A DNA stretch of 64,000 nt from Eledone cirrhosa (taxonomy: Eukaryota): contig OZ024742.1 in NCBI GenBank assembly GCA_964016885.1, forward strand, positions 292,082,001-292,146,000, read 5' to 3'. Within the stretch, counting starts at the first letter, position 1; every line of letters begins with the position of its first letter. Below, one piece after another: positions 1,862-49,852 of the stretch. The notes under the pieces were generated by a model. It searched no databases and was not told where the DNA came from. It was given only the letters and a program-made list of their open reading frames with translations. The translations under genes and the position numbers were made by a program.

Positions 1862-4165
1862 AAGAACGGGGGGAGCAGGGTACATTACATAGAGACCAAG
1901 AGGGAAGCTAGGCGACAAGTATACTTAGCTAGGAGGGAAGCAGAGGATAGAAAATTCAAGCATGTTTTACAACGTGAGGACCAGAAACAGGAGGTATTCA
2001 AGATTGCGAGGCAGTGTGTCAGAGATAGTTGTGATGTCATTGGAGAGAAGTGTATCCGGAATGATAAAGGTGAGCTTGCCCTCACAAGTGCTGAGAAGAA
2101 AGATGCATGGAAGAGTCATTATGATAGATTACTAAATGAGGAGAATGCATGGGAAGAAGAGACCCTACCCCACGTAGACCCTATAGAGGGACCAGCAGTA
2201 CAAGTCAGCGGCAGCGTAGTAAGTAAGGCAATCAGAGATATGAAGGTAGGGAAGGCAACCGGTCCATCGGGTATAGCTGCCGAGATGCTGAAGGCATCTG
2301 GGTCTGTAGGTCATACTATAACCACACGTATCGTTAACCAGGTAATACTAGAGGGGGCCATACCAAAAGATTGGTGCAGTAGCATCATTGTCAACTGCTA
2401 CAAAGGTAAAGGCGATGCACTAGATAGAGGAAACTATAGAGGTATAAAGTTGATGGACCAGGTCATGAAAGTAACAGAAAGAGTTATAGCACAGCTGATT
2501 AGGGACCGGGTGAATATAGACGAGATGCAATTTGGGTTTGTACCAGGGAAAGGCACCACTGATGCGCTCTTCCTTGTGAGGCAATTACAGGAAAAGTACC
2601 TAGCTAAAAGTAAGCCACTCTACTTGGCATTTGTCGACCTTGAGAAAGCCTTTGACAGAGTTCCACGTGCAGTAATCTGGTGGGCTCTTAGAAAACTAGG
2701 AGTAGATGAATGGCTTGTGAAAGCGGTACAAGCCATGTATAGGGGAGCAGTCAGCAAAGTTAGGATTGGCAATGAGTATAGCGAGGAATTTAGCGTACAG
2801 GTTGGGGTCCACCAGGGCTCTGTTCTTAGCCCTCTCCTGTTCATCATAGTCCTGCAGGCAATAACGGAGGAGTTTAAGACCGGATGCCCATGGGAACTCC
2901 TGTATGCTGATGACCTCGCACTCATAGCTGAATCTATGGTAGAACTAGAGAATAAATTCCAAACCTGGAAGCAGGGACTAGAGAGAAAGGGCCTCAAAGT
3001 CAACATGACAAAGACTAAGGTCCTTATAAGTAGACGAGAAAACAGAACCCAGATCCCCTCAGGGAAATGGCCTTGCTCAGTATGTAGGAAAGGTGTAGGT
3101 AGGAACTCCATTCTTTGCCCCAAATGCAAACAATGGGTACACAAGAGATGTAGCGGGATCTCAGGAAGCTTAATTAAGAATGTAGGATTCACATGCAGCA
3201 GCTGTGCTGAAACAGCAAGCAAACAGCCACAGGAAACAAGTACCACCAATCTCTGGGAGGGCCCTGTAGAAACAGTAGACAGCTTCTGCTACCTAGGTGA
3301 CCGAATTAGCAACGGAGGTGGGTGCTCAGAAAGTACAATAACTAGGGTAAGAACGGGTTGGAAGAAGTTTAGGGAACTACTACCACTGCTAGCTGCAAAA
3401 GGCTTCTCCCTCAGAATGAAAGGCAGACTGTATGATGCGTGTATCCGAACAGCGATGTTGCATGGTAGTGAGACCTGGGCGCTGAAGGTGGAAGACTTAC
3501 GTAGATTAGAGAGAAACGAAGCCTGCATGCTCCGATGGATGTGTAACAGTAATATACGTGAACGACAAAGCATAAATGAATTGAGAGAGAGACTGAGCAT
3601 AAGAGGAATCAAATGCTGCGTGCAGGAGAGGCGGTTACGCTGGTATGGACATGTGATGCGTATGAAGGATGACAGCTGCATAAAAAGGTGCAGAGCACTA
3701 GAAGTTGATGGAAACCGCGGAGTGGGGAGACCCAAGATGACTTGGGATGAGGTGATAAAAGCCGACCTTACCCAACTACACCTCTCAAAGTCAATGACAC
3801 ACGACCGTGACTTCTGGCGTCACGCAGTAATACAGGGTACCCGACCTCCCATGGGTACATGCTGAAGCATATAAACAATATGCCCCCCCCCCCAAGGTGG
3901 TCGTGGAGGTGCCACGGCAAAAAAAGCACCCAGCCCACACTGTAAAGTGGACGTGTAGGCGCCACGAAAAAGCACCCAGCACTCACTGTAAATGAGGTTG
4001 GTGTTAGGAAGGGCATCCAGCTGTAGAAATCAAGCCAGATCAGTTCCTGTATGAGCAAGGCATGGTCAGCCGACCAGACACTGCCCACAACAGGACAACC
4101 CGTCTAACCCATGCTAGCGTGGAAGAACGGACGTAAAACGGTGATGATGATGATGATGATGAAGA
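1862..4165 (+). mobile_element. RTE-clade LINE family A, 5'-truncated young copy (RT + PHD-type finger; ORF 2240..3865)
   Basis: FVDLEKAFD, QGSVLSP and YADD motifs; (GAT)n tail; almost identical to 40284..42588; candidate TSD GGAAAATAATT at 1846-1856 and 4170-4180. Confidence 0.95.
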
Positions 4166-4250: not shown

Positions 4251-5650
4251 TCATCATCATCATGATCACCGTTTTACGTCCGTTCTTCCACAATAGCATG
4301 GGTTAGATGGGTTGTCCTGTTGTGGGCAGTGTCTGGTCGGCTGACCATGCCTTGCTCATACAGGAACTGATTTGGCTTGATTTCTACAGCTGGATGCCCT
4401 TCCTAACACCAACCTCATTTACAGTGAGTGCTGGGTGCTTTTTCGTGGTGCCTACACGACCACCTTGCAGTGGGAGGGTGTGGGGGCATATTGTCTATAT
4501 GCTTCAGCTTGTACCCATGGGAGGTCAGGTACTCTGTATTACTGCGTGACGCCAGAGGTCACGGTCGTGTGTCATCGCCTTTGAGAGATGTAATTGTGTA
4601 AGGTCGGCTTTTATCACCTCATCCCAGGTCTTCTTGGGTCTCCCCACTCCGTGGTTTCCATTGCCTTCTAGTGCTCTGCACCTTTTTATGCAGCTGTCAT
4701 CCTTCATACGCATCACATGCCCATACCAATGCAACCGCCTCTCCTGCACATAGCATTTTATTCCTCTTATGCTCAGTCTCTCTCTCAATTCATTTATGCT
4801 TTGTCGTTCGCGTATATTACTGTTACACATCCATCGGAGCATGCAGGCTTCGTTTCTCTCTAATCTACGTAAGTCTTCCACCTTCAGCGCTCAGGTCTCA
4901 CTACCATGTAACATTGCTGTTCGGATACACGCATCATACAGTCTGCCTTTCATTTTGAGGAAGAAGCCTTTTGCAGCTAGCAGTGGCAGTAGTTCCCTGA
5001 ACTTCTTCCATCCCGTTCTTACCCTAGTTATTGTACTTTCTGAACACCCACCTCCGCTGCTAATTCGGTCACCTAGGTAGCAGAAGCTGTCTACTGTCTC
5101 TACAGAGCCCTCCCAGAGATTGGTGGTACTTGTTTCCTGTGGCTGTTTGCTGCTAGCTGTCCCAGCACAGCTGCTGCATGTGAAGCCTACATTCTTAATT
5201 AAGCTTCCTGAGATCCCGCTACATCTCTTGTGTACCCATTGTTTGCATTTGGGGCAGAGAATGGAGTTCCTACCTACACCTTTCCTACATACTTGTTTCT
5301 ACTTTAGGCACAAGGCCAGCAATTACCCAGTGCATTACTGGTACTTTATTTTATCGACCCTGTAAGGATGAAAGGCAAAGTCAACCTCGGCGGGATTTGA
5401 ACTCAGATCGTAAAGGGACGTAACTATGCTTGAAAGCATGGCGTCCGACCCTCTACCGATACTGCCAATCCACCCTACATACTGAGCAAGGCCATTTCCC
5501 TGAGGGGATCTGGGTTCTGTTTTCTCGTCTACTTACAAGGACCTTAGTCTTTGTCATGTTGACTTTGAGACCCTTTCTTTCTAGTCCCTGCTTCCAAGTT
5601 TGGAATTTCTTCTCTAGTTCTACCATAGATTCAGCTATAAGTGCAAGGTC
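4251..5650 (-). mobile_element. RTE LINE family A, 5'-truncated copy interrupted by a SINE
   Basis: Minus-strand ORFs 4525..4881 and 5453..5668 match the family A C-terminus; (ATC)n tail at the left end; deletion in the 3' UTR. Confidence 0.93.
5294..5473 (-). mobile_element. SINE family 1 inserted in RTE, with TSD
   Basis: A-box TGGCAGTATCGG and B-box GAGTTCAAATCC on the minus strand; 10-bp TSD CCTACATACT at 5284-5293 and 5474-5483. Confidence 0.93.
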
Positions 5651-8990: not shown

Positions 8991-9004
8991 ATATATATAT
9001 ATAT

Positions 9005-9392
9005 ATATAAAATCAAAAGATGGTTAAAAGAGTTCCATGTTTTTTATTATGTGCATTTCAAAAACAAATATCATCATGGGATGATATTTGCGTTCTCATC
9101 AGATAAAATAGGGAGACATGATATGAAGCTTAAAAAACACACTGTTAAATCAACACACTGCTCACAGGTGTTTTTTAAGCTTCATATCATGTCTCCCTAT
9201 TTTATCTGATGAGAACTCAAATATCATCCCATGATGATATTTGTTTTTGAAATGTGCATAATAAAATACATGGAACTCTTTTAACCATCTTTTGATTTTA
9301 TATTATTTATACTCCAGTCCTATAAACTGTTGAGTGCTACTTATCCGATATTTGCATTGCTTTATTGTGCTACAATAAAACTCACCTCATAC
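9005..9392 (+). mobile_element. Miniature non-coding fold-back element (PLE-like ends) with hammerhead motifs
   Basis: 136-bp inverted arms 9005-9140 / 9168-9303, 27-nt spacer, ~90-nt unpaired extension, (TA)n on both sides. Confidence 0.8.
9198..9268 (+). ncRNA. Type I hammerhead ribozyme motif (mirror copy 9040..9110 on minus strand)
   Basis: TATTTTAT-CTGATGA-[GAACTCAAATATCATC CCAT GATGATATTTGTTTTT]-GAAA-TGTGCA-TA-ATAAAATA: 8-bp stem I, intact core, 11-bp hairpin in stem II, near-palindromic stem III. Confidence 0.8.
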
Positions 9393-9407
9393 ATATATAT
9401 ATATATA

Positions 9408-9449
<42 letters not shown>

Positions 9450-9490
9450 GAAAGTAAAACAAAGAAGCCTTCAATACATCAAAAGTCTTT

Positions 9491-9536
9491 ATTAGCCAAC
9501 AATGTTTCATCCTATTAAGGACTCATCAGGCCAATT
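9491..9536 (-). ncRNA. Minimal type I hammerhead motif
   Basis: Minus strand reads ATTGGC-CTGATGA-GTCC TTAATA GGAT-GAAA-CATTGTTG-GCTAAT; canonical core and stem II; stem III and cleavage site are irregular. Confidence 0.72.
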
Positions 9537-10121
9537 AAAACAACAAGAAGTAATGTCGGCAGATACAAGCCGGAAGCTCCGAAGAATATGGAGTGTACAT
9601 ACACTAAAGTATTGCAAGATTATGGGTAAAAATATATAATAAAAATAATAAAAATATATAATAAAAATTACTAAGGATGTATATAACATTAAGAACCATA
9701 TTACAAATATAGTCCAAAGCAAAAAAAACCTAGAGCTAAACAAAGGTGGTTATATAGATCAGGAATTATATATAATACAATGTAATATAATATATTATAC
9801 CTTTACCAATATTAAAATTACAATAAAAATCAAAAGGTACAATATGCATATGTATATATGTACGCACACGTACACACACATACACATACAACAATACACA
9901 TATCCATCTTCAACTGCACAAATTAAACCTTATTAAGAGTTTGAATATAAAAAGTTTGAATATAAAAATAAGCATGATAGGAATGAAAATAATAATAATA
10001 ATAATACTAATACATCTACCCAATATACATGAGGTAATAATATGATATAATTATAAGTATCACATATAATAAATAATGAACAATACAATTATATACTATA
10101 TAATATAATAGAATAGAATAG

Positions 10122-12354
10122 GCTTCTAAATGAGGAGAACAAATGGGAGAAAGACAGTCTCCCCCACATCGACCCAATAGAGGGACCAGCAGTGTTAGTC
10201 CAGGGTAGTACAATAAGCAAGGCAATCAAAGATATGAAGACTGGTAAGGCGGCTGGTCCTTCGGAAATAGTTGCTGAGATGCTGAAGGCATCTGGTTCGG
10301 TGGGACACACCATGGTCACCCGGATAGTTAACCAAGTCGTACAGAATGGGGTTGTTCCGAAGGACTGGCGTAGCAGCATCATCGTTAACTGCTATAAGGG
10401 AAAAGGAGATGCCCTAGATAGGAGTAACTATAGAGGCATTAAATTAATCGACCAGGTCATGAAGGTCACGGAAAAAGTAATAGCGCAACTAATCAGAGAG
10501 AGAATTGATCTAGATGAAATGCAGTTCGGGTTTGTGTCAGGCAAAAGTACCACAGACGCTCTTTTCATTGTACGACAACTACAGGAGAAGTACCTAACTA
10601 AAAGTAAACCCCTATACTTAGCTTTCGTCGACTTGGAGAAAGCCTTCGACAGAGTCCCCCGTTCCATTATCTGGTGGTCTCTTAGAAAACTAGGTGTTGA
10701 CGAATGGCTTGTGAGAGCTATACAAGCCATGTATAAAGAAACAGTCAGTAAGGTTAGAATTAACAACGAATATAGTGAAGAGTTTAGCGTAAAAGTTGGT
10801 GTCCATCAGGGCTCTGTCCTTAGCCCCCTACTATTTATTATTGCCCTTCAGGCTATAACAGAGGAGTTCAAGACCGGCTGCCCATCGGAACTCCTATACG
10901 CAGATGATCTAACGCTCATAGCTGAATCAATGACCGAACTAGAGAAGAAATTCCAAACATGGAAGCACGGCCTAGAATCAAAAGGCCTTAAAATTAACCT
11001 GGCTAAGACAAAAGTTCTAGTTTGTAGGAAAGAAAATATGACGGCAGTCCCATCTGGGAAATGGCCATGCTCAGTGTGTAGGAAAGGCGTAGGTAGAAAC
11101 TCCATTTTATGTCCCAAATGCAAAGTATGGGTGCATAAAAGATGTAGTGGGATCACAGGTAAGCTAACTAAGAACATAGATTTTACATGTGGCCGGTGCT
11201 CTGGTGCAATAAGTAGCAGCAAGTGCCCACAAAATACTAGCTCCTTCAACTGCGCAGAGGGTTCTATAGAAATAGTGGACAGCTTCCGTTACCTGGGTGA
11301 CAAAATCAGCAGTGGGGGAGGGTGCTCTGAAAGTACAGTAGCTAGAGTCAGAACTGGATGGAAAAAGTTCAGAGAGCTTATACCACTATTAGCCGCTAGA
11401 GGGTTCTCCCTAAAAATGAAAGGCAGGTTATACGATGCCTGCATACGAACAGCAATGCTGCATGGCAGTGAGACCTGGGCATTGTGTGCAGAGGATATAC
11501 GCAGACTAGAGAGGAACGAAGCTTGCATGCTCCGCTGGATGTGCAATAGTAATATACGTGAACGGCAAAGCATAAACGAACTAAGGAAAAAATTAGAAAT
11601 AAGAGGGATCAGATGTTGTTTACTCGAGAGAAGGCTACGTTGGTACGGTCACGTGATGCGCATGAAAGACGACAGCTGTATAACAAAGTGCAGGGCAATA
11701 AAGATAGACGGTAGCCACGGAGTAGGCAGACCCAGAAAAACATAGGACGAGCTGATAAATTCCGACCTCACACGCTTACACCTCTCCAAGACAATGTCAC
11801 TGGACCGAGACCTTTGGCGGTACTCAGTAATAGAGAAGACCCGCCTTACCTAAATACAAAGTAAAAACCTACTACAGTCAGTAGGCATCTCTATCAAACC
11901 CCCCCGTCCCACCACCTCCACCCCATCCACACCGCCCCTTTCAATGTACAGTTATGTTGGTCCCACAACATCCAGGCCGAAACAAATGAGATCGTGTAGG
12001 TGTCACGACAAAAAACACACAGTCCACGCTGTAAATGTGGCCGTGTAGGCAACACGGTAAAAACCTCCCAGCCCCACACTGTAAATGTGGTTGGTGTTAG
12101 GAAGGGCATCCAGCTGTAGAAAACCCGCCAGACAGTCCACGCTGTAATGTGGCCGTGTAGGCAACTCGGTAAAAACCTCCCAGCCCCACACTGTAAATGT
12201 GGTTGGTGTTAGGAAGGGCATCCAACTGTAGAAAACCCGCCAGACAGTCCTATGCGAGCAAGACAACCACTCTTGCCTCAAGTGGGAAAACCCCCGTCCA
12301 AACCCATGCAAGCGTGGAACACGGACGCTAAACCTGATGATGATGATGATGATG
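10122..12354 (+). mobile_element. RTE LINE family B, 5'-truncated (ORF 10192..11745, premature TAG near C-terminus)
   Basis: YADD RT and C4HC3 finger; ~115-bp tandem duplication in the 3' UTR (about 12020-12250); (GAT)n tail. Confidence 0.95.
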
Positions 12355-18439: not shown

Positions 18440-21400
18440 ATCATCATCATCATCATCATCATCAACGTTTAACGTCCGTGTTCCACGCTTGCATGGGTTT
18501 GGACGGGGGTAGTCCCACTTGAGGCAAGAGTGATTGTCTTGCTCGCATAGGACTGTCTGGCAGGTTTTCTACAGTTGGATGCCCTTCCTAACACCAACCA
18601 CATTTACAGTGTGGGTCTGGGAGGTTTTACCGTGTTGCCTACACGGCCACATTACAGCGTGGACTGTGTGTTTTTTTGTCGTGACACCTACACGATCTCA
18701 TTTGTTTCGGCCTGGATGGTGTGGCACCAACATAACTTTACATAGAACGGGGTGGTGTGGATGGGGTGTGTGTGTGGGGGGGGGTATTTTGTTAGAGATG
18801 CCTACTGGCTGTAGTAGGTTTTACTATGTATTTAGGTAAGGCGGGTCTTCTCTGTTACTGAGTACCGCCAAAGGTCTCGGTCCAGTGACATTGTCTTGGA
18901 GAGGTGTAAGTGTGTGAGGTCGGAGTTTATCAGCTCGTCCCAGGTTTTTCTAGGTCTGCCTATTCCGTGGCTACCGTCTATCTTTATTGCCCTGCACTTT
19001 GTTATACAGCTATCGACTTTCATGCGCATCACGTGTCCATACCAACGTAGCCTTCTCTCGAGTAAACAACATCTGATCCCTCTTATTTCTAATTTTTTCC
19101 TTAGTTCGTTTATGCTTTGCCGTTCACGTATATTACTGTTACACATCCAGCGGAGCATGCAAGCTTCGTTCCTCTCTAGTCTGCGTATATCCTCTGCACA
19201 CAATGCCCAGGTCTCACTACCATGCAACATTGCTGTTCGTATGCAGGCATCGTACAACCTGCCTTTCACTTTTAGGGAGAACCCTTTAGCAACTAATAGT
19301 GGTATAAGCTCTCTGAACTTTTTCCAACCAGTTCTGACTCTAGCTACTGTACTTTCAGAGCACCCTCCCCCACTGCTGATTTTATCACCCAGGTAACGGA
19401 AACTGTCCACTATTTCTATAGAACCCTCTGCGCAATTGAAAGAGCTAGTATTTTGTGGGCACTTGCTGCTACTTATTGCACCAGAGCACCGGCCACATGT
19501 AAAATCTATGTTCTTAGTTAGCTTACCTGTGATCCCACTACATCTTTTATGCACCCATACTTTGCATTTAGGACATAAAATGGAGTTTCTACCTACGCCT
19601 TTCCTACACACCGAGCACGACCATTTCCCAGAAGGGACCGCCGCCTTATTTTCTTTCCTACAAACTAGAACTTTAGTCTTAGCCAGGTTAATTTTAAGGC
19701 CTTTTGATTCTAGGCCGTGCTTTCATGTTTGGAATTTCTTCTCTAGCTCGGCCATTGATTCAGCTATGAGCATTAGATCATCTGCGTATAGGAGTTCCCA
19801 TGGGCAGCCGGTCTTGAACTCCTCTGTTATAGCCTGAAGGGCAATAATAAATAGTAGGGGGCTGAGAACAGAGCCCTGATGGACGCCAACTTTTACGCTA
19901 AACTCTTCACTATATTCGTTGTTAATTCTAACCTTGCTGACTGTTTCTTTATACATGGCTTGTATAGCTCTCACAAGCCATTCGTCAACGCCTAGTTTTC
20001 TAAGAGCCCACCAGATAATGGAGCGGGGGACTCTGTCGAAGGCTTTCTCCAAGTCGACAAAAGCTAAGTAGAGGGGTTTACCTTTAGCTAGGTACTTCTC
20101 CTGTAGTTGTCGTACTATGAAAAGAGCGTCTGTGGTACTTTTGCCTGACACAAACCCGAACTGCATTTCATCTAGGTCAATTCTCTCTCTGATTAGTTGT
20201 GCTATTACTTTTTCCGTGACCTTCATGACCTGGTCGATTAATTTAATGCCTCTATAGTTACTCCTATCTAGGGCGTCTCCTTTACCCTTATAACAGTTAA
20301 CAATGATGCTGCTATGCCAGTCCTTCGGAACAACCCCATTCTGTACGACTTGGTTAACTATGCGGGTGACCATGGTGTGTCCCACCGTGCCAGATGCCTT
20401 CAGCATCTCAGTAACTATTTCCGAAGGCCCAGCCGCCTTACCCGTCTTCATATCCTTGATTGCCTTACTTATTATACTCCCCTCGACTAACACTGCTGGT
20501 CCCTCTATTGGGTCGATATGGGGGAGACTGTCTTTCTCCCATTTATTCTCCTCATTTAGTAGCCTTTCATAGTGACACTTCCAAGCTACCTTCTTATCAG
20601 TGTCGGTGATGGCAAGTGTGCCATCATCGTTTAGTACACACTTCTCCCCGACAATATCACGGTTTTCCTTGACGCATTGCCTAGCAATCCTGAACACCTC
20701 ACGTTTTTGGTCATCGCGTTGTAGAACATGCTTGAACTTTCTTTCCTCAGCTTCCCTTCTTGCTAAGTACACTTGTCTCCTAGCTTCCCTCCTGGTCACT
20801 TGATAGTCTTCTCTACTTCCCCCATCCCGCCATACTTTCGAAGCCTGCTTTTTGGCCTTAATTGACCCCTCCACCTTACTGTTCCACCACCATGTTACTC
20901 TCCTCCTGCCTACAGGCCTGCTCCAGCCACAGACTTCGTCTGTCGCCAACAGCAGGTTTGCTTTCAGAAATTCCCACTCTCCCTCTATATTGTCCGACTC
21001 TAAATGTTCTTCCTTACTGTCGAAAGCATCAAGTAATATGCTTTGAAATTTATTCCTGGCTGTGGGGTCCTTTAGCTTCCATATTTTTCTCCTGAGGATA
21101 GTCCTCTTCTGCTGTCGAGTACGTCTCGTCCTGACTATGAGGTCGCTAATTATCAGTCTATGTTGGGAGGTGCATTCTTCATGGGGGAGGGATTTAGTGT
21201 TTACAACAGACACTCTGTCACGTCTTCTGGTAAGGATATAATCTACCTGGCTTGTGTGTTCCCCGGATCTATAGGTGATCAGGTGATTGTCACGTTTTTT
21301 GAAGTTAGTGTTACAGATAGTTAGGTTATTTGCATCACAGAATTCCAAGATTCTGGAGCCTTCCTCATTTCTAGTACCAAACCCATAGCCTCCATGGATT

Positions 21401-21611
21401 CCGTCGTAGCCGTCACAATGTTGTCCAACGTGACCATTTAGGTCGCCTGCAATAATTATATAGTCACTGTCAGATATTTGGGAGGTAGTTAGCATCAGTG
21501 TCTCATAGAATCTGTCTTTTATAGTGCCGGGCAGTCCGGATTGGGGTGCGTACGCAGATATTACTGTCACCGTAGTTCTATTGAGGACAAGTCGTATTTT
21601 AATTATTCTGA
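18440..21611 (-). mobile_element. RTE LINE family B, near full-length, 5'-truncated in APE, single TGG>TGA stop at 19723
   Basis: ORFs 19723..21657 and 18832..19611 are in the same frame; SAYAPQ, AGDLNGHVG, YADD and C4HC3 finger present; (ATC)n tail. Confidence 0.95.
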
Positions 21612-21619
21612 TATAGTCT

Positions 21620-21945
21620 ATATTATTTGTGCTGCTATATTTGTCAGTAGTGTACATGCTACCATATCTGTTGTCTTTATTTATGTACTACCATATCTGT
21701 AGTATTTACTGCATGTGCTACCCTATCTGCTATCTTTATTCTATGTGCTACCATATCAGTACTCTTTATTGTATGCACTACCATTTCTGTAGTCTTTACT
21801 ATATGTACTACACAATCTGTAGTTTATATTATATGTGCTACCATAGTTATTTGTTGTTAATGTATGAGCTACCATATTTAGTCTCTATGCTACCACATCA
21901 GTAATATTTTTTTTATGCTCTACCATATCTGTATTATTTCTATAT
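21620..21945. repeat. ~31-bp minisatellite, about 10 diverged units (core TGTGCTACCATATCTGTAGT)
   Basis: Directly visible; explains the C/Y-rich ORF 21629..21904. Confidence 0.85.
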
Positions 21946-25208: not shown

Positions 25209-25350
25209 TAGGATTGGTGCTCTGAAAAAGCGATGTATACATGAATATATGTATAGTATATTTGGCAATATACTGTATGCTTAATTAATCTTCAAAATGT
25301 TTTTAATTAAGCATACAGTATATTGCCAAATATACTATACATATATTCAT
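25208..25350. repeat. Small fold-back: perfect 48-bp arms 25241-25288 / 25303-25350
   Basis: ATGAATATATGTATAGTATATTTGGCAATATACTGTATGCTTAATTAA and its reverse complement; related single arm at about 49851-49900. Confidence 0.85.
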
Positions 25351-25779
25351 ATATATAAGGTAAATTATATGAGTTGATTAGAAGGCATTCAAATATTTAC
25401 AGCTCTAATCCAGATTGGTGAAAGACGGTTTGGAGATAAATCCAATTTATAGATTTCTGGTCATCATAGATTTGCAAATCACAGAGCATAAATAATGTAT
25501 TAATGTACTAAACCTTGGTGATCTTTTCCTTTATACCCAAACCAAGCAGTCGAAAAACAGAATGCAGAATTCTTAATGAAAAAACAACTCAAGAAATGTA
25601 TGTGAAAATGTAAGAGAAAGCAAACTTTGCTAAACAGCAATTTTGTGTACATGTTATAAAGATCCTTTTTTATATATATATATATATCAGGTGCGCTTTT
25701 TCGAACCATTTTTTAAATTATCTTTTTTCTCATACAATGTGATCTGTATAGAAAGTTTTCTAATGTCCACACGTTTTTC

Positions 25780-31598: not shown

Positions 31599-33991
31599 AG
31601 GCTTGGAAAGTATGGCAGGATGGGGGAAGTAGAGAGCACTATCAAGTGGCCAGGAGAAAAGCTAGGAGACAAGTGTAACATGCAAAAAGGGTAGCAGACG
31701 ATAGAAAGTTCAAGCATGTTCTACAACGTGAGGACCAAACACGTGAGGTCTTCAGGATTGCTAGACAATGTGTCAAGGAAAACCGTGATATTGTCGGGGA
31801 GAAGTGTGTCCGTAATGATAACGGTGTACTTGCCCTCACTGATGCTGATAAGAAGATAGCCTGGAAGTGTCACTACGAGAGACTATTAAATGAGGAGAAT
31901 AAATAGGGAAAAGATAGTCTGCCCCAAATCGATCCAATAGAAGGACCAGCGGTGCAAGTTAAAGGTAGTATAATAAGTAAGGCAATCAAAGATATGAAGA
32001 CAGGCAAGGCAGCTGGGCCTTCGGAGATAGTTGCTGAGATGTTGAAGGCATCTGGTATGGTGGGACATACTATGGTCACCCATATAGTTAACCAAGTAAT
32101 ACAGAATGGGGTCGTACCAAAGGACTGGCGTAGCAGCATCATAATTAACTGCTACAAGATTAAAGGAGATGCCCTAGATAGGGGAAACTATAGAGGCATT
32201 AAGTTAGTTGACCAGGTCATGAAGGTCACAGAAAAAGTTATAGCACAACTAATCAGAGAGCGAATTGATCTAGATGAAATGCAGTTTGGGTTTGTGTCAG
32301 GTAAAAGTACCACAGATGCTCTTTTCCTTGTACGACAACTACAAGAGAAGTACCTAGCTAAAAGTAAACCCCTATACTTAGCTTTTGTAGACCTGGAAAA
32401 AGCCTTTGACAGAGTCCCCCGCTCCATTATCTGGTGGGCTCTTAGAAAACTAGGTGTAGATGAATCGCTTGTGAGAGCTATACAAGCTATGTATAATAAA
32501 ACAGTCAGTAAGGTTAGAATTAACAATGTCCTTAGCCCCTTCCTATTTATTATTGCCCTTCAGGTTATAACAGAGGAGTTCAAGACCGGCTGCCCATGGG
32601 AACTCCTATATGCAGATGATCTAACGCTCATAGCTGAATCAATGGTCGAGCTAGAGAAGAAATTCCAAACATGGAAGCACGGCCTAGAATCAAAAGGCCT
32701 TAAAGTTAACTTGTCTAAGACTAAAGTCCTAGTTTGTAGAAAGGAAAATAAGGCACAGGTACCCTCAGGGAAATGGCCTTGCTCAGTGTGTAGGAAAGGA
32801 GTAGGCAGAAATTCAATTTTATGTCCCAAATGCAAAGTATGGGTACATAAAAGATGTAGTGGGATCACAGGTAAACTATCTAAGAACATAGACTTTATAT
32901 GTGGCCGATGCTCAGGTGCAATAGGTAGAAAGTGTCCACAGGATACTAGTCCCTTCTATTGCCCAGATGGTTCTATAGAAATAGTAGACACTTTCCGTTA
33001 CCTGGGTGACGAAATCAGCAGTGGTGGAGGGTGTTCTGAAAGTACAGTAGCCAGAGTCAGAACGTGATGGAAAAAGTTCAGAGAGCTTATACCGCTGTTG
33101 GCCACAAAAGGGTTCTCTCTAAAAATGAAAGGCAGATTGTATGATGCTTGTATATGAACATCAATGCTACATGGCAGTGAGACATGGGCATTGCATGCAG
33201 AGGACCTGTGTATACTGGAAAGGAACGAAGCATGCATGCTCCGTTGGATGTGTAATAGTAATATACGTAAATGGCAAAGCATAAATGAAGTAAGTGAGAA
33301 ATTAGGAATAAGAGGGATCAGATGCTGTTTACTCGAGAGAAGACTACGTTGGTATGCCCACGTGATGCACTTGAAAGACGACAGCTGTATAAAAAAGTGC
33401 AGGGCGATCAAAATTGATGGTAGTTACGGAGTAGGTAGACCCAGAAAAACCTGGGACGATCTGATAAATTCTGACCTTACACACTTGCACCTCTCTAAGA
33501 CAATGTCACTGGACCGAGATCTTTGGCGCTATGCAGTAATACAGAAGACCCGCCTTGCCTATGTACAAAGCGAAACCTACAGTTAGTAGGCACCTCTTAA
33601 CCAAATATACACCCCAATCCACTACCCCTACCCTATCCTTCCACTCCCACCAACACCACCCTCCCTCTATAAAGTTGGTACCACAACATCCAGTCCAAAT
33701 AAATGAGATAAATGAGATCGAGATCGAGATCGTTTAGGTGTCACGAGAAAAAAACACACAGTCCACGCTGTAATGTGGTCGTGTAGGTAACACGGTAAAA
33801 AGTTCCCAGTTCCACACTGTAAAAGTGGTTGGTGTTAGGAAGGGCATCCAGCCGTAGAAAACCTGCCAGATATTCCTATATGAGCGAGACATGGTCACCC
33901 GACCAACCTTGCCTCAAGTGGGACAACTCCCGACTAACCCATGCTAGCGTGGAAAATAAACATTAAACGATGATGATGATGATGATGATGA
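31599..33991 (+). mobile_element. RTE LINE family B, decayed copy
   Basis: ORFs 31952..33067 and 33164..33586; several stops; QG motif deleted (INN joined to VLSP); (GAT)n tail. Confidence 0.94.
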
Positions 33992-38477: not shown

Positions 38478-41400
38478 TGTGAGTAAATATGGATATTTAC
38501 CATGCGGTATTCTAATCCTATTGTATCTCTCTCAGTTATTTACCATGCGACCCTCAGTTCCTACCCCCCCTCTCTATGCACTTCTTTAAGGCTTACTACC
38601 CTGTCTTTAACCTAATTCATTCAATCTGAAAATATTGAAGAGATAAGACACTTTCCCATTCTTCTCTGCTAAAATGTATCACTAGAGCTGCTGATTCCAA
38701 TTTTCCCAGCCAGCCATCCATCTAATCTACGAAGGTATTTTAGCCTACATATTGTCGTTAATATTATGATGTTCCCTGCTGTATTAGCGTTAAATTTTCC
38801 CTGCTGTATTAGCGATAAATTTTCGAGGGTTTCTCTTAGTAGTTTTTTTCATGACGTTATTATTGTTAATTTTACTGATGTAGTATTAACTTGGATATTT
38901 ACCATGCGACCCTCAGTTCCTACCTCACAATTTCCCTCCCCCCCACCCCCACACACCACCATAGTCTATTCGACCAATCAAACCTAGCATGCCATTTCCA
39001 CTGCTGCTGCTGCTACTACCTGCCTAACTAACTCTCTCCTCCTCTGGCGCATCCCAACACACCCTGCCATTACCCCACCACCACTGTCCTTCTAGCCCTC
39101 AATTTTCCCACCGTTATGGATGGATGAGCTGGGAATACACGAGCAACTCTGAATCAATAGATGAAATATGAATCTGCGAGCTACCAAGCACCCACGTGAA
39201 GCGCCAACCCAGAGACCCTCCCCTACGAGTGTCGACAAATGCCCAAAACTCCGAGTTGGTACCATCAATGTAGGCTCAATGAAAGGAAGAGCAGGAGAAA
39301 TCGTAGAAATGCTAGAGCGAAAGGAAGTTGATGTATGCTGTGTGCAAGAGACTAGATGGAGAGGAGGGTCTGCTAGAGTCCTTGTAGGAAAAAGCCAGTG
39401 CTACAAATTTTTCTGGGTGGGAAATGACGATGGGATGGGTGGTGTAGGTATACTATTAGCTGACAAGTGGGTAGATAAAGTAATCTCAGTGTACAGGGTA
39501 AATGCAAGAATCATTAAACTCAGACTAGTCCTGAATAAGACAATTACCACAATAATATCAGCTTACGCACCCCAATCGGGGCTGCCAGACGAACTTAAGG
39601 ATAGGTTTTACGAGTCCCCAATACACACTACTGCTCTAACAGACGACAAGGACTTCCTAATCATTGCAGGAGATTTTAACGGACACGTAGGTAAACACTG
39701 CGACGGCTTCAATAGAGTACATGGAGGCCATGGAGTTGGCACAAGGAATGAGGAAGGATTCAGACTTCTAGAATTCTGCGACGCCAATGACATGTCGATA
39801 TGTAACACAAACTTTAAAAAACCCGACAACCACCTGATCACCTATAGATCAGGGGAGCACTCTAGTCAGTTAGATTTTATCCTCATCAGAGGACGTGACA
39901 GATGGACGGTCGTAAACACAAAAGCCTTCCCTAGTGAGGAATGTACATCCCAACATAGCTTAGTTGTCAGCGACCTCACGGTCAGAACTAGACGAGCCCT
40001 GAAACAGAGGCCAACCTGGAGAAGAAAGATCTGGAAGCTGAAAGTCCCCTCAACCAGTAACAGATTTAAAGATATTTTACTCAACGCCTACGACAGTAAA
40101 GAAGAACAGATAGAGACATTTAACGTAGAAGAGAACTGGGAGTTCCTAAAAAATAACTTACTAGAGGCGACGGATGAGGTTTGTGGCTGGAGTAAGACCT
40201 CAAGCAGGAGGAGAGTGACTTGGTGGTGGAACAATAAGGTAGATGAAGCAGTCAAGGCCAAGAGACAGGCATGGAAAGAATGGAAGAACGGGGGGAGCAG
40301 GGTACATTACATAGAGACCAAGAGGGAAGCTAGGCGACAAGTATACTTAGCTAGGAGGGAAGCAGAGGATAGAAAATTCAAGCATGTTTTACAACGTGAG
40401 GACCAGAAACAGGAGGTATTCAAGATTGCGAGGCAGTGTGTCAGAGATAGTTGTGATGTCATTGGAGAGAAGTGTATCCGGAATGATAAAGGTGAGCTTG
40501 CCCTCACAAGTGCTGAGAAGAAAGATGCATGGAAGAGTCATTATGATAGATTACTAAATGAGGAGAATGCATGGGAAGAAGAGACCCTACCCCACGTAGA
40601 CCCTATAGAGGGACCAGCAGTACAAGTCAGCGGCAGCGTAGTAAGTAAGGCAATCAGAGATATGAAGATAGGGAAGGCAACCGGTCCATCGGGTATAGCT
40701 GCCGAGATGCTGAAGGCATCTGGGTCTGTAGGTCACACTATAACCACACGTATCGTTAACCAGGTAATACTAGAGGGGGCCATACCAAAAGATTGGTGCA
40801 GTAGCATCATTGTCAACTGCTACAAAGGTAAAGGCGATGCACTAGATAGAGGAAACTATAGAGGTATAAAGTTGATGGACGAGGTCATGAAAGTAACAGA
40901 AAGAGTTATAGCACAGCTGATTAGGGACCGGGTGAATATAGACGAGATGCAATTTGGGTTTGTACCAGGGAAAGGCACCACTGATGCGCTCTTCCTTGTG
41001 AGGCAATTACAGGAAAAGTACCTAGCTAAAAGTAAGCCACTCTACTTGGCATTTGTCGACCTTGAGAAAGCCTTTGACAGAGTTCCACGTGCAGTAATCT
41101 GGTGGGCTCTTAGAAAACTAGGAGTAGATGAATGGCTTGTGAAAGCGGTACAAGCCATGTATAGGGGAGCAGTCAGCAAAGTTAGGATTGGCAATGAGTA
41201 TAGCGAGGAATTTAGCGTACAGGTTGGGGTCCACCAGGGCTCTGTTCTTAGCCCTCTCCTGTTCATCATAGTCCTGCAGGCAATAACGGAGGAGTTTAAG
41301 ACCGGATGCCCATGGGAACTCCTGTATGCTGATGACCTCGCACTCATAGCTGAATCTATGGTAGAACTAGAGAATAAATTCCAAACCTGGAAGCAGGGAC

Positions 41401-42586
41401 TAGAGAGAAAGGGCCTCAAAGTCAACATGACAAAGACTAAGGTCCTTATAAGTAGACGAGAAAACAGAACCCAGATCCCCTCAGGGAAATGGCCTTGCTC
41501 AGTATGTAGGAAAGGTGTAGGTAGGAACTCCATTCTTTGCCCCAAATGCAAACAATGGGTACACAAGAGATGTAGCGGGATCTCAGGAAGCTTAATTAAG
41601 AATGTAGGATTCACATGCAGCAGCTGTGCTGAAACAGCAAGCAAACAGCCACAGGAAACAAGTACCACCAATCTCTGGGAGGGCCCTGTAGAAACAGTAG
41701 ACAGCTTCTGCTACCTAGGTGACCGAATTAGCAACGGAGGTGGGTGCTCAGAAAGTACAATAACTAGGGTAAGAACGGGATGGAAGAAGTTTAGGGAACT
41801 ACTACCACTGCTAGCTGCAAAAGGCTTCTCCCTCAGAATGAAAGGCAGACTGTATGATGCGTGTATCCGAACAGCGATGTTGCATGGTAGTGAGACCTGG
41901 GCGCTGAAGGTGGAAGACTTACGTAGATTAGAGAGAAACGAAGCCTGCATGCTCCGATGGATGTGTAACAGTAATATACGTGAACGACAAAGCATAAATG
42001 AATTGAGAGAGAGACTGAGCATAAGAGGAATCAAATGCTGCGTGCAGGAGAGGCGGTTACGCTGGTATGGACATGTGATGCGTATGAAGGATGACAGCTA
42101 CATAAAAAGGTGCAGAGCACTAGAAGTTGATGGAAACCGCGGAGTGGGGAGACCCAAGATGACTTGGGATGAGGTGATAAAAGCCGACCTTACCCAACTA
42201 CACCTCTCAAAGTCAATGACACACGACCGTGACTTCTGGCGTCACGCAGTAATACAGGGTACCCGACCTCCCATGGGTACATGCTGAAGCATATAAACAA
42301 TATGCCCCCCCCCCCCACCGCAAGGTGGTCGTGGAGGTGCCACGGCAAAAAAGCACCCAGCCCACACTGTAAAGTGGACGTGTAGGCGCCACGAAAAAGC
42401 ACCCAGCACTCACTGTAAATGAGGTTGGTGTTAGGAAGGGCATCCAGCTGTAGAAATCAAGCCAGATCAGTTCCTGTATGAGCAAGGCATGGTCAGCCGA
42501 CCAGACACTGCCCACAACAGGACAACCCGTCTAACCCATGCTAGCGTGGAAGAACGGACGTAAAACGGTGATGATGATGATGATGA

Positions 42587-44556: not shown

Positions 44557-45087
44557 TATATATATATATGTATTAATAAAAGGAATTCCAACTTTCTCTG
44601 ATTTACTCGTTTTATTTACAATCCTTTAAAATTATAATGATATTATAATGAAATATTATGGTAGAATATTAAATGTTAAATGTTAATTGAACAAGTACTC
44701 TCATGCTTTCGCAATCTTCAGGTTCATATTCAGTGGTGACAGTCAAGTTTGCAATTTTCAACTGTAATGAGATGGCTAAAATCTGTGCCTTATATACAGT
44801 AAAAAGGGGCTACAGAATGCTAAGTTTTGCAAACTGTATTTCGACCAATCGGTGTGTGGTTTCACTAGATTACTAAAGCTGATTGGTTTAGGCGTCACGG
44901 TTAGTTGAGTATGTCTAACGACTTCTATTTGACCCTATCCAAAGCATCAATTGTTTTGCTATTTTTAGAAATGATGAAAATAGCATTTTCTAGGGTTTTT
45001 ATAAAAAAATCTTCAGTAATCATCAACATTAACATCACTTTTATTATTATTATTGTTGTTGTTGTTGTTAGTGGTGGTAGTCGACAT

Positions 45088-46806
45088 AGCTTCAAAATAC
45101 TACAACTCACTTACTGATAATGAAAGAGACTACATCACCAATTTTGAGCCAAAACCCAGCAACTTTTATGGCTTGCCGAAAATTCATAAGTCAAAAGAAA
45201 TCCAACTGGCAGTAAAAGAACAAAAAAGTGAGTACATTAAATTACTACACCCAAAAGAGTAGAATTTAGACCTATTATAGCTGGTCCAACATGCCCTACC
45301 TACCGTCTAAGCAATTTTGTTGACATTATTTTGAAACCACTATGTATTCACATACCCAGTTTCATCCGGGATGATATCGACTTCCTGTCCCATCTCCCCA
45401 AAACCACAGAAACGAATTCACTTCTACTTAATTTTGATGTGGTAAGTCTTTACACCAACATTACACATGATTTAGGAATAAAGGCGGTTAAATACTGGGT
45501 AGAAAAACATAGAGAAGTGATTCCCACCAGATTCACAGTGCCATTTATATTAGACGCAGTCAGGCTTATTCTGGAAAACAACACATTCTTCTTCAATGGA
45601 AAGAATTACATCCAAATTAGAGGCACAGCGATGGGAACGAAGTTTGCTTCCATTTATGCCAACTCTGTAATGGGATACTTAGAACAACAACTCTACCAAG
45701 AAATAGAGGAAAAATATAGCACTGAATTTAGAAAGTACATTGAAAAGTCTTGGAAGAGATACCTTGACGACTGTTTCATCATCTGGACAGAATCTCTAGA
45801 TAGTCTGGATGAGTTCAATATCCTCCTGAATAGCCTACACCCATCTCTCCAATTCATAAAAGAAATGAGTAGTACCAAATTATCATTCCTAGATATAATG
45901 GTAATCAAAAACGACACCACCATTACCACGGATATATACTATAAACACACAGACACCCATCAATATCTTAATTTTAAGTCGTGCCACCCACCTCATACAA
46001 AACGCAACATCCCATACTGCCTAGCCAGAAGAATGTGTACCATTGTAGAAGATACGAATACCAGGAACAAACACCTAACAGAACTGAGAGAACTTTTGCT
46101 CAAACAAAAATACCCATCTCTACTTATAAAAAATGGCATACTGCGGGCTATAAAAATACCTATACAACAACTTAGGACAACCCAAGGAAGAAGAAACCAA
46201 GAACTGGTCATACAATTTATAATGACACACAACCCATGTCACCAGAATATCTTCAACACTGCCAAAGCAAACCTACCGATCATTGCTCAAAGTAATGAAT
46301 TAAAAGGTTTAATCACAGACCGACCTTTGACTCTTAGTAAAAGACAGTCGAAAAATTTGAAGCAATTACTAAGAAAGGCAAAGTTTGACCTTAACAACAA
46401 AGACCAATCATTCACCGTATCTAAATGCAATGATAATCGATGTGGCACATGTCAGTTCATACATACTGGTCAATATATGAACACAAAAACTGGAAAAATA
46501 ATCCCAAATGCAAATATGAACTGCAAAAGCAGAAATCTAATTTACTGCATTAAATGCCCGAATTGTGAAGAACTATATGTTGGTCAAACTGGAAATGCAC
46601 TATCGGAACGTGCACGGGTGCACCGGCAGCAAATCAGAGACCCAAATGTCCATCAGATACCTCTGAGTAACCATCTAGCAACATGTGGTCAGAAAATATT
46701 TATAATATATCCATTCTACAAACTACACAGCCCAAGTGAAATCAAGAGAAAAATTAAAGAAAAGAATTTTATTGATAAATTCCAACCCAAGCTAAATGAA
46801 CAATAA
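45088..46806 (+). pseudogene. PLE RT-GIY-YIG ORF, 5'-truncated, one frameshift near 45260
   Basis: FYGLPKIHK, RPII, FDVVSLYTNI, GTAMG, RYLDD, FLD, YLNFKSCHP, C..RCGTC, NLIYCI.CPNC...YVGQT..L.ER...H. Confidence 0.93.
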
Positions 46807-47192
46807 TAATGCTTAGGCGTATTACTTCTACTATGACTACGCCTACGACCATGTCGACTAGCCCCACTAACAACAACAAAAACAATAATAATAATAAAAG
46901 TGATGTTGATTACTGAAGATTTTTTATAAAAACCCTAGAAAACGCTATTTTCATCATTTCTAAAAATAGCAAAACAATTGATGCTTTGGATAGGGTCAAA
47001 TAGAAGTCATTAGACATGCTCAATCAACCATGCTGCCTAAACCAATCAGCCTTAGTAATCTAGTGAAACAACACACCGATTGGTCGAAATACAGTTTGCA
47101 AAACTTAGCATTCTTTTTACTATATATAAGGCACAGATTTTAGCCATCTCATTACAGTTGAAAATTGCAAACTTGACTGTTACCACTGAATA

Positions 47193-47231
47193 TGAACCTG
47201 AAGATTGCGAAAGCATGAGAGTACTTGTTCA
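47193..47231 (+). ncRNA. Ultra-minimal hammerhead-like motif in PLE arm (mirror 44688..44726)
   Basis: TGAAC-CTGAAGA-TTGC-GAAA-GCATGAGAGTAC-TT-GTTCA: 5-bp stem I and core present, stem II essentially absent, weak stem III. Confidence 0.5.
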
Positions 47232-47382
47232 ATTAACATTTAACATTTAATATTCTACCATAATATTTCATTATAATATCATTATAATTTTAAAGGATTG
47301 TAAATAAAACGAGTAAATCAGACAAAGTTGGAATTCCTTTTATTAATATAATCTTCTATACACAATCATACACACCCGTGTA

Positions 47383-47461
<79 letters not shown>

Positions 47462-48245: not shown

Positions 48246-48890
48246 GAGCCACTAATGATGACAAGAACTTCACTGTCAGTGGCCCAGCTACACCAAACAT
48301 CTCAAACACCACAGGTTGGAAAAAATAATTATTTGATAATTCCCAGTATTTTAGGATTGCCTACTTTAGTTACAACTACTTATAGTTCATTTTAATATAA
48401 AAAAACGTACACTACAGTCCAACTACTGTTCCATATATTCCCAAATTGCTTCCTTCATTTGTTTACTGTTGGTTTCAGTCATTAGACTGCACCCATTCTT
48501 TGAAGAGATTTAGTCTATAGCAATTCCACTACTTATTTTTTCAAGCCTGCTACTTATTGATTGAGATATCTCTCTTTTGTTTGTTTGTTTTTTTCTTTTA
48601 TCAAGCTATTAAATTACAGAATACAAATATAGAGACAGATAGAAATGTTAACATAAACACTGATAGAACACAGATATTTATATATATATATATATATATA
48701 TGTGTAGATAAATCTACCAAAATATACTGTAGTGTCCAATCCGTATGAAGAACTCAATGTAATCCAAATATCATGAAAAGAGAAGATGTATAAAAAATAT
48801 TTTCGATGAAAAACACAGGAAAACAGAGTCAAGATAAATTAATAAAAACAATGAATAAAAACAAAGAAACAGTTCCTTATATTAAAAAAT

Positions 48891-49022
48891 TCATCATTTT
48901 ACGATCGTTTCTAGGATATATATGTGTGTGTTGGTATGTATATCATATAGATCTATGTAAAAGTTTTACAAACTATCAGAGGGAATATACATACCTACAC
49001 ATGCTGTCTTCAGAAATAATGA
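48891..49022 (-). ncRNA. Type I hammerhead motif with ~95-nt stem II (mirror 49572..49707 on plus strand)
   Basis: Minus strand: TCATTATTT-CTGAAGA-[95 nt]-GAAA-CGATCG-TA-AAATGATGA; 9-bp stem I, palindromic stem III, GUA triplet; the insert contains GGTATGTATAT/ATATACATACC pairing. Confidence 0.75.
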
Positions 49023-49388
49023 TATTTGTTTATTGAAAAAAACCAACAAAGATTTAATATAATAGGTCTGTTTGGGAACAGGTTTTGAATTGACCAATAG
49101 AAAAGTAGTAAGTGGTCAAGTTGATAGAATAGTAGTAGTAGAAATTTAATTTAGGGGTAGAGGAATGCAGACTTCAGTTTTGAATGGAAAAAGTATTTTG
49201 AATGAAAAGATTACTTTGGGGATGAAAATAGGTCAAGCCGGTGAAAGGTACACGAAAATTTGATGTTATTCTATCAACTTGACCACTTACTACTTTTCTA
49301 TTGGTCAATTCAAAACCTGTTCCCAAACAGACCTATTATATTAAATTTTTGTTGGTTTTTTTCAATAAACAAATATCATTATTTCTGA

Positions 49389-49571
49389 GCAGTGGATTGG
49401 CAGTATCAGTAGAGGGTCAGACGCCATGCTTTCCAGCATAGTTATGTCCCTTTACGATCTGAGTTCAAATCCCGCCGAGGTTAACTTTGCCTTTCATCCT
49501 TACGGCGTCGATAAAATAAAGTACCAGTAATGCACTGGGTAATTGGTGGCCTTGTGCCTAAAGTAGAAACA
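49389..49571 (+). mobile_element. SINE family 1 with 11-bp TSD
   Basis: TSD ATTATTTCTGA at 49378-49388 and 49572-49582; the empty site is seen in the opposite arm. Confidence 0.95.
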
Positions 49572-49762
49572 ATTATTTCTGAAGACAGCATATATATGTG
49601 TAGGTATGTATATTCCCTCTGATAGTTTGTAAAACTTTTACATAGATCTATATGATATACATACCAACACACACATATATATCCTAGAAACGATCGTAAA
49701 ATGATGAAATTTTTAATATAAGGAACTGTTTCTTTGTTTTTATTCATTGTTTTTTATTAATT

Positions 49763-49852
<90 letters not shown>

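Follow-up and report, generated by a model that had tools for sequence, protein, structure and literature searches.

The question raised by this locus is how a short element, embedded in (TA)n, came to carry a hammerhead ribozyme motif on each of its strands, and whether this arrangement is a selected device or a by-product of insertion. Our analysis covered the window, i.e. the whole 64,000-nucleotide stretch of Eledone cirrhosa DNA. It revealed that the 388 bp under study are composed of two 5'-truncated, hammerhead-bearing ends of one repeat family, lying head to head, and they very probably represent the dead-end product of a single insertion of a Penelope-like element (PLE). The features of the element and of the two comparable layouts in the window are collected in Table 1.

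Table 1. Positions of the features of the 388-bp element and of two further head-to-head layouts in the window
Feature	Positions	Strand	Basis
(TA)n tract, left; likely insertion target; overlaps the arm end	8992–9008		sequence
Inverted 5'-truncated copy of the family end region; ends at the inner 3' terminus	9005–9155	-	arm match; upstream letters equal the loose ends of other copies
Type I hammerhead, left arm: core running down from 9102, weakened stem III, cut predicted at 9048/9047	9042–9108	-	descriptor
Probable head-to-head junction of two truncated 5' ends	9155–9156		loose ends preceding 9156 in X1 and X6; no coverage of 9141–9149 in any of 4 runs
Direct 5'-truncated copy, pseudo-LTR-like end region	9156–9303	+	arm match, read alignment
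Type I hammerhead, right arm: stem I 8 bp, CUGAUGA 9206–9212, stem II 9213–9248, GAAA 9249–9252, UA 9259–9260, predicted cut 9260/9261	9198–9268	+	descriptor; family variation spares the core
One-sided extension of 81–89 nt that separates the two 3' termini of the family; corresponds in position to a PLE 'tail'	9304–9392	+	(TA)n in the loose ends behind 9303, 9311 and 9388
(TA)n tract, right; common to a separate hammerhead-bearing fragment beyond	9393–9446		sequence
5'-truncated PLE between inverted ends, short extension on the right	44571–47390		protein domains, inverted-repeat match
Head-to-head hammerhead palindrome, unrelated family	48712–49765	cores 49013 (-), 49579 (+)	sequence

The two inverted arms (9005–9140 and 9168–9303) are indeed 136 bp long, as the initial annotation had it, and are complementary at 132 of 136 positions in the arm alignment, the mismatches being 9041/9267, 9052/9256, 9053/9255 and 9091/9217. 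The palindrome itself is real, with a computed fold of -221.5 kcal/mol for the 388 nt (z -28.7; none of 100 shuffles equally stable); its extent is 299 bp (9005–9303) rather than the 388 bp described earlier, and the remaining 89 nt (9304–9392) form an unpaired extension. The 27 nt between the arms had been taken for a separate spacer. They are better read as the left 5' end plus the right 5' end, because the upstream letters of other copies contain the reverse complement of 9142–9155; the two truncated ends thus probably meet at 9155/9156. Compared with the right copy, the left one extends about 16 nt further upstream and is missing about 13 nt near its 5' end. Position 9167 was dropped as a change common to both arms, since the left arm has an indel there. 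The window contains no other copy of the element, and no long reading frame is present in the element or in 9447–9870.

Read outward, each arm displays stem I, CUGAUGA, a 36-nt stem II hairpin, GAAA, a 6-nt insert, UA and the stem I partner. The CUGANGA, GAAA and UH elements and stems I–III therefore occur in order in both arms, with stem III available only as a dimer, so that the claim of hammerheads on both strands holds at the level of the type I sequence motif. In the left arm, 6 bp of stem I are unbroken. Stem II was previously given as 11 bp, which corresponds only to the unbroken distal part in the right arm: the full helix comprises 16 positions, with 14 pairs in the right arm and 15 in the left; its fourth position is a C-U mismatch, and the closing pair is G-U in both arms. 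Our descriptor matched twice in the window. Among 300 dinucleotide shuffles, 6 contained a single match and none contained two, giving a mean of 0.02 per shuffle; the control is modest, since the two arms are a single event and the motif was already known when the descriptor was written. The descriptor also misses the motifs at 9491–9535, 44721/47198 and 49013/49579.

Rfam yielded no match at the gathering score in the window, and none of the 35 matches at E<=5 falls on the arms. The fact that neither arm reaches the gathering score of Hammerhead_1 (RF00163) lowers the confidence in 'canonical' and not in 'hammerhead', because the RF00163 model has a 4-bp stem II. A miRNA-type origin of the hairpin was discarded, the Rfam miRNA-type matches all being far below the gathering score. 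Elsewhere in the window, at 25236–25355, 53-bp arms with 98% complementarity enclose a 14-nt loop; its Rfam miRNA-type matches are likewise all below the gathering score. Facing the same right-hand (TA)n tract as our element, an unrelated fragment on the minus strand (9447–9850) carries a canonical-looking type I hammerhead at 9491–9535. This motif scores 26.5 bits with Hammerhead_1, below the cut-off of 34 (E 0.00088 and 0.033 in two scans), and is probably decayed, judging from the G at position 17 in the Rfam register.

The arms belong to a repeated family. A search of public sequencing runs listed 12 runs, 8 of which contain part of the stretch and 4 at least half of its words; none of the listed runs containing the stretch is an RNA run. 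These four (X1, X5, X6 and X10) were aligned to 9141–9390 at 80% identity or more, and X7 and X8 (share 0.08) were left out. X1, X5 and X6 are contig sets from three organisms, with 3063 of 16,517,967, 44 of 8,254,286 and 27 of 6,943,267 contigs matching, and X10 consists of raw RAD reads, 5104 of 12,467,656 of which match. The summed contig depth, which rises to 2.1 million in X1, is not a copy number; it is concentrated on the 3' 230 nt of the aligned stretch. Neither metagenome nor viral contigs contained a match to a family-specific pattern. With a looser core pattern, 116 matches appeared among the metagenome contigs; we attribute these to chance, as none of the 116 has both stems I and II and none is PLE-like in protein or DNA. 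No account of this family was found in a search of papers, and it may already be described, for instance in Repbase or Dfam.

The loose ends of these alignments, visible to 30 letters each, delimit the family. Among the 22 loose-end entries listed out of 184, an inner 3' terminus at 9303/9311 runs into (TA)n in 188 + 190 reads of X10, 17 contigs of X1 and one contig each of X5 and X6, and an outer 3' terminus at 9388 does so in 2676 reads of X10 and 30 contigs of X1. The family's two 3' termini (9303–9311 and 9392) are thus the outer ends of the left and the right arm. In X6, two contigs run from the outer 3' end (9388) into an A-run and not into (TA)n. On the 5' side, other copies continue upstream of 9156–9162, and their letters match 9142–9155 reversed; at 9162 the continuation has a median of 62 letters in 228 reads of X10, a value bounded by read length. 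Positions 9141–9149 are not covered in any of the four runs, a gap that by itself says nothing either way on the junction of this particular copy, which is without independent read support. Four of the six listed joints, at 9261, 9298, 9299 and 9362 in X10, change strand; each has 1–2 read starts in one RAD library, two have fewer than 30 letters on the short side, and they may be library chimeras. None of the six is a unit-length joint that goes back to the start of the unit. A putative cut-site signal, consisting of a depth step in X10 (9258–9266) and a 3-read joint at 9261, was set aside, since a small number of loci dominate the RAD library and no end pile is listed there.

The variation among copies bears on the hammerhead itself. 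In X1, 30 changes at 5% or more fall on 27 places; all are among the 40 of 64 entries listed, and the counts by kind agree with the full tally. The 11 fixed core positions have none of the 30 changes (p 0.24 alone) and neither do the 12 inner positions of stem I (p 0.046 together with the core), while the free position N7 varies in 17.5% of the depth. In stem II, a transition would preserve the pair at 17 places and break it at 13; all 7 variable places belong to the former (p about 0.01). The columns are unlinked, and the pattern is not one of covariation. At the closing pair of stem II, G10.1-C11.1 in the type I hammerhead, A or G faces U across the family, with C in 215 of 1539 reads of X10 and in 0.03% of X1 depth. 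An outer extension of stem I (9188–9191 with 9269–9272) is broken in 17.6% of X1 depth and is thus unsupported.

This copy departs from the family in several of these places. Position 9255 is C in 98.7% of X1 depth, which makes the family's stem III a perfect 8-nt palindrome. The near-palindromic stem III noted earlier is imperfect here, as described, but this state reflects decay from the family's perfect form. The right arm has lost it by a C to T change and the left arm by a G to A change at the next base, both of which look like CpG decay. The decayed 8-mers (9049–9056 and 9252–9259) are exact complements of each other, which follows from the two CpG changes and would also be explained by a short inversion. 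In addition, the right arm has a broken stem II pair at 9217 that is kept in all X1 depth, and the left arm has one broken stem I pair. Both arms carry a letter at 9297 that 94.6% of X1 depth is without, suggesting one source template for the two. Judged by sequence variation, the fold is kept at the family level and is decaying in this copy.

The layout agrees with that of endonuclease-bearing (EN+) PLEs. A type I hammerhead end repeat, an adjacent inverted and 5'-truncated copy placed head to head, and a tail at one end with two 3' termini are all present here, and (TA)n lies on both sides of the element as well as behind the listed 3' loose ends. The typical PLE arrangement outlined in PMC8557442 is 5'-truncated, with a truncated copy in inverted orientation at its 5' end and a tail of 30–40 bp at one end; hammerheads in the pLTRs of the canonical clades and an insertion bias to microsatellites are also described there. 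Head-to-head inverted copies are treated as a by-product of PLE insertion in both PMC8557442 and PMC3846280. The units of Penelope/Poseidon, Neptune and Nematis, as presented in these two papers, share with our element the inverted truncated copy, the extension at one end, the two 3' termini, the (TA)n target and the end-repeat hammerhead, whereas here no coding part is left at the locus and the tail measures 81–89 nt instead of 30–40. The end repeat would be a pLTR in the strict sense, and membership of the family in the PLEs is likely, not proven. The locus holds no RT or endonuclease frame, as expected of a truncated copy. The PLE of the window (44571–47390) shows no similarity to the family (score 19, a value reached by 173 of 200 shuffles), and metagenome and viral contigs yielded no relatives. 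No target-site duplication is readable within (TA)n.

The insertion mechanism reported in PMC11167929 offers an explanation for the two termini. According to that work, both strands of AT-rich DNA are cleaved by the PLE protein, which reverse transcribes the RNA from two internal start sites; the tail is what lies between these sites. By analogy, an RT/GIY-YIG protein from a master copy elsewhere would have nicked AT-rich DNA, and the element RNA would have been copied from both start sites. The cDNA from the outer site would have given the right arm with its tail (end 9392), and that from the inner site the left arm (end 9005, corresponding to 9303 in family terms). Both would have stopped about 50–65 nt upstream of the ribozyme core before being joined. 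For the joining of the 5' ends, not settled in the literature, PMC3846280 proposes self-priming. In PMC11167929, insertion in vitro did not require the hammerhead, RNA ends at the cut site were not observed, and the Poseidon hammerhead needed its protein to cut. In the source copies, the ribozyme is probably under selection and would cut as a dimer through its palindromic stem III, perhaps with help from the protein.

The hammerhead is closest to the minimal type I hammerheads of metazoan PLEs (PMC4209133, PMC6765202, and Lunse et al. as summarized in the latter), with which it shares the fold, an intact core, a palindromic stem III, a long helix II and opposite-strand pairs. It differs from them in its helix II of 16 positions, with an inner C-U mismatch and no unpaired base before the helix, while those described have a helix II of 7–8 bp; in its closing pair, which is A-U, G-U or G-C instead of a conserved G-C; and, in the comparison made here, in its UA cleavage site. 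Minimal hammerheads with long helix II, palindromic helix III and weak dimer cleavage are described in PMC4209133, together with hammerhead pairs on opposite strands 100–700 bp apart, so that such pairs were already reported in 2014. Metazoan non-LTR retrozymes (PMC7229834; bioRxiv 10.64898/2026.07.22.740005), which are likewise short, non-coding and AT-rich, with a type I hammerhead and many copies, are portrayed as head-to-tail tandems; the arms here lie head to head and their 3' ends run into (TA)n and not into the next unit. We rejected this identity in view of the single locus in the window and the lack of unit-length joints among the six listed.

The view that the short palindromic stem III leads to cleavage as dimers is in line with PMC4209133 and with the review PMC6765202, where dimer cleavage of short-stem-III hammerheads is summarized, and with our computed energies, which are predictions. 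Closing the 2-bp stem III in a monomer costs 3.5 kcal/mol, while the 8-mer duplexes are computed at -10.5 kcal/mol for the family with itself, -9.0 for left with right, -6.0 for right with itself and -3.7 for left with itself. In the 388-nt read-through RNA, the computed pair probability of stems I and II is 0.000 in either direction, which bears out the expectation that the left arm would pair with the ribozyme arm: a 136-bp hairpin burying both ribozymes, and a substrate of double-stranded RNA, is what such a transcript would form. In whole single arms, the probability of stem I is still at most 0.001, and it is 0.7–0.8 for 9186–9280 alone.

These predictions invite the hypothesis, put forward in the initial annotation as a built-in off switch, that the element is a selected fold-back device whose ribozymes are silent in read-through RNA and cut only from inner starts or as trans dimers. 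The predicted burial of the ribozymes, the resemblance of the arms, which are still 97% alike, and the stem III 8-mers, whose mixed duplex is stronger than either self-duplex, all suit this hypothesis. We nevertheless consider it very improbable. The centre is absent from all four runs and private to this copy, the family runs through it, and four other opposite-strand joints are listed elsewhere. Transcripts starting in the spacer, from which cleavage was to come, have no separate spacer to start from. The perfect palindrome of the family is gone from both arms, a loss explained by two CpG-type changes; a stem II pair maintained in the family is broken in the right arm, as is a stem I pair in the left; and stem I is hardly predicted even in the single arms. 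The burial of the ribozymes is, on these models, a side effect of the insertion layout, nothing points to a selected switch, and this copy is presumably neutral.

The remaining explanations concern the origin of the element. A non-autonomous mini-element, i.e. a short hammerhead RNA that has no coding master, is moved in trans by a PLE protein and acquires its mirror half at insertion, would account for the many copies, for the coding link not found and for the concentration of depth on the 3' part, and non-autonomous PLE derivatives are known (PMC8557442; bioRxiv 10.64898/2026.07.22.740005). However, copies run upstream of the reference as far as the reads allow, and heavy 5' truncation of a coding element would look alike, the two accounts differing only in whether the master exists; we regard the mini-element as improbable. 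Long inverted arms flanked by TA, in many copies, might also recall a MITE or foldback DNA transposon with a TA target whose arms captured a hammerhead, but the ends are asymmetric, with 89 nt outside the arms, most of the listed 3' loose ends fall at the end of the tail, the family continues across the centre, the centres differ, and two 3' termini contradict shared terminal inverted repeats, so that the chance of this origin is minimal. Just as slight is the chance that assembly or library preparation folded back a single arm. The junction was seen in none of the four runs, as such an artefact would have it, but the arms differ at four places and by an indel near the centre, each has the letter most common in the family at places where the other departs from it (the left at the equivalents of 9217 and 9255), and the window has two more such layouts. 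A truncated product of one PLE insertion thus remains our preferred explanation.

These two further layouts result from unrelated insertions. The PLE at 44571–47390 has an RT and GIY-YIG frame (45331–46806, 491 codons free of stops), and a CX4CX2C motif before its endonuclease resembles the Zn-finger-like linker of the Neptune/Nematis type, as described for these clades in PMC8557442. Its inverted ends are 93% alike over 517 columns, and each carries a hammerhead-like motif (47198 on the plus strand, 44721 on the minus strand) with GAGA in place of GAAA; viral contigs contained no relatives of its protein. The palindrome at 48712–49765, to which blastn detected no similarity of our element, has a UA site, a stem III that forms a perfect 8-nt palindrome, a helix II region of 95–101 nt, well beyond the 7–8 bp of PMC4209133, and a stem I of up to 10 bp on the left. 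Its arms are separated by 135 nt; the left side carries an extension of about 100 nt, and the right stem I is interrupted by a SINE (about 49389–49572).

The rest of the window is repeat-rich animal-type DNA, with microsatellites, SINE-like repeats and a LINE family encoding RT, AP-type endonuclease and PHD domains. Copies of this LINE family lie at 2240–3865, 10192–11745, 19723–21657, 31952–33067 and 39168–42287; the longest frame (1039 aa) has an AP-type endonuclease, an RT and, in an unusual place after the RT, a PHD finger. A 1066-bp inverted pair (3079–4141 and 4269–5293), 91% alike and 127 nt apart, consists of LINE 3' ends and SINE-like sequence placed tail to tail.

To conclude, the finding is real but ordinary: a PLE-type end, one of very many truncated copies, whose single locus is of little weight and useful as a marker. 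More can be drawn from the family. Its two termini predict the RT start sites on the RNA, and the variation across copies indicates selection to maintain a hammerhead that Rfam misses, one whose helix II has 16 positions and whose closing pair is not G-C. Helix II is long in both hammerhead families considered here (16 bp in this one, about 95 nt in the second family of the window). A much broader scenario, which we think quite improbable, is that of a PLE lineage with a long tail (81–89 nt) and long-helix-II hammerheads whose head-to-head stumps would act genome-wide as hairpin RNA, shutting the ribozyme and feeding small-RNA silencing, with left/right dimers still cutting when the arms are transcribed apart. 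Rearranged Penelope copies with inverted repeats gave siRNAs in Drosophila (PMC3681739), and a read-through transcript of the element studied here would likewise form a long hairpin. A limit of this kind on spread is described for Penelope in flies, not generally. If such stumps do regularly feed silencing RNA, the geometry of insertion itself would limit the spread of the element.
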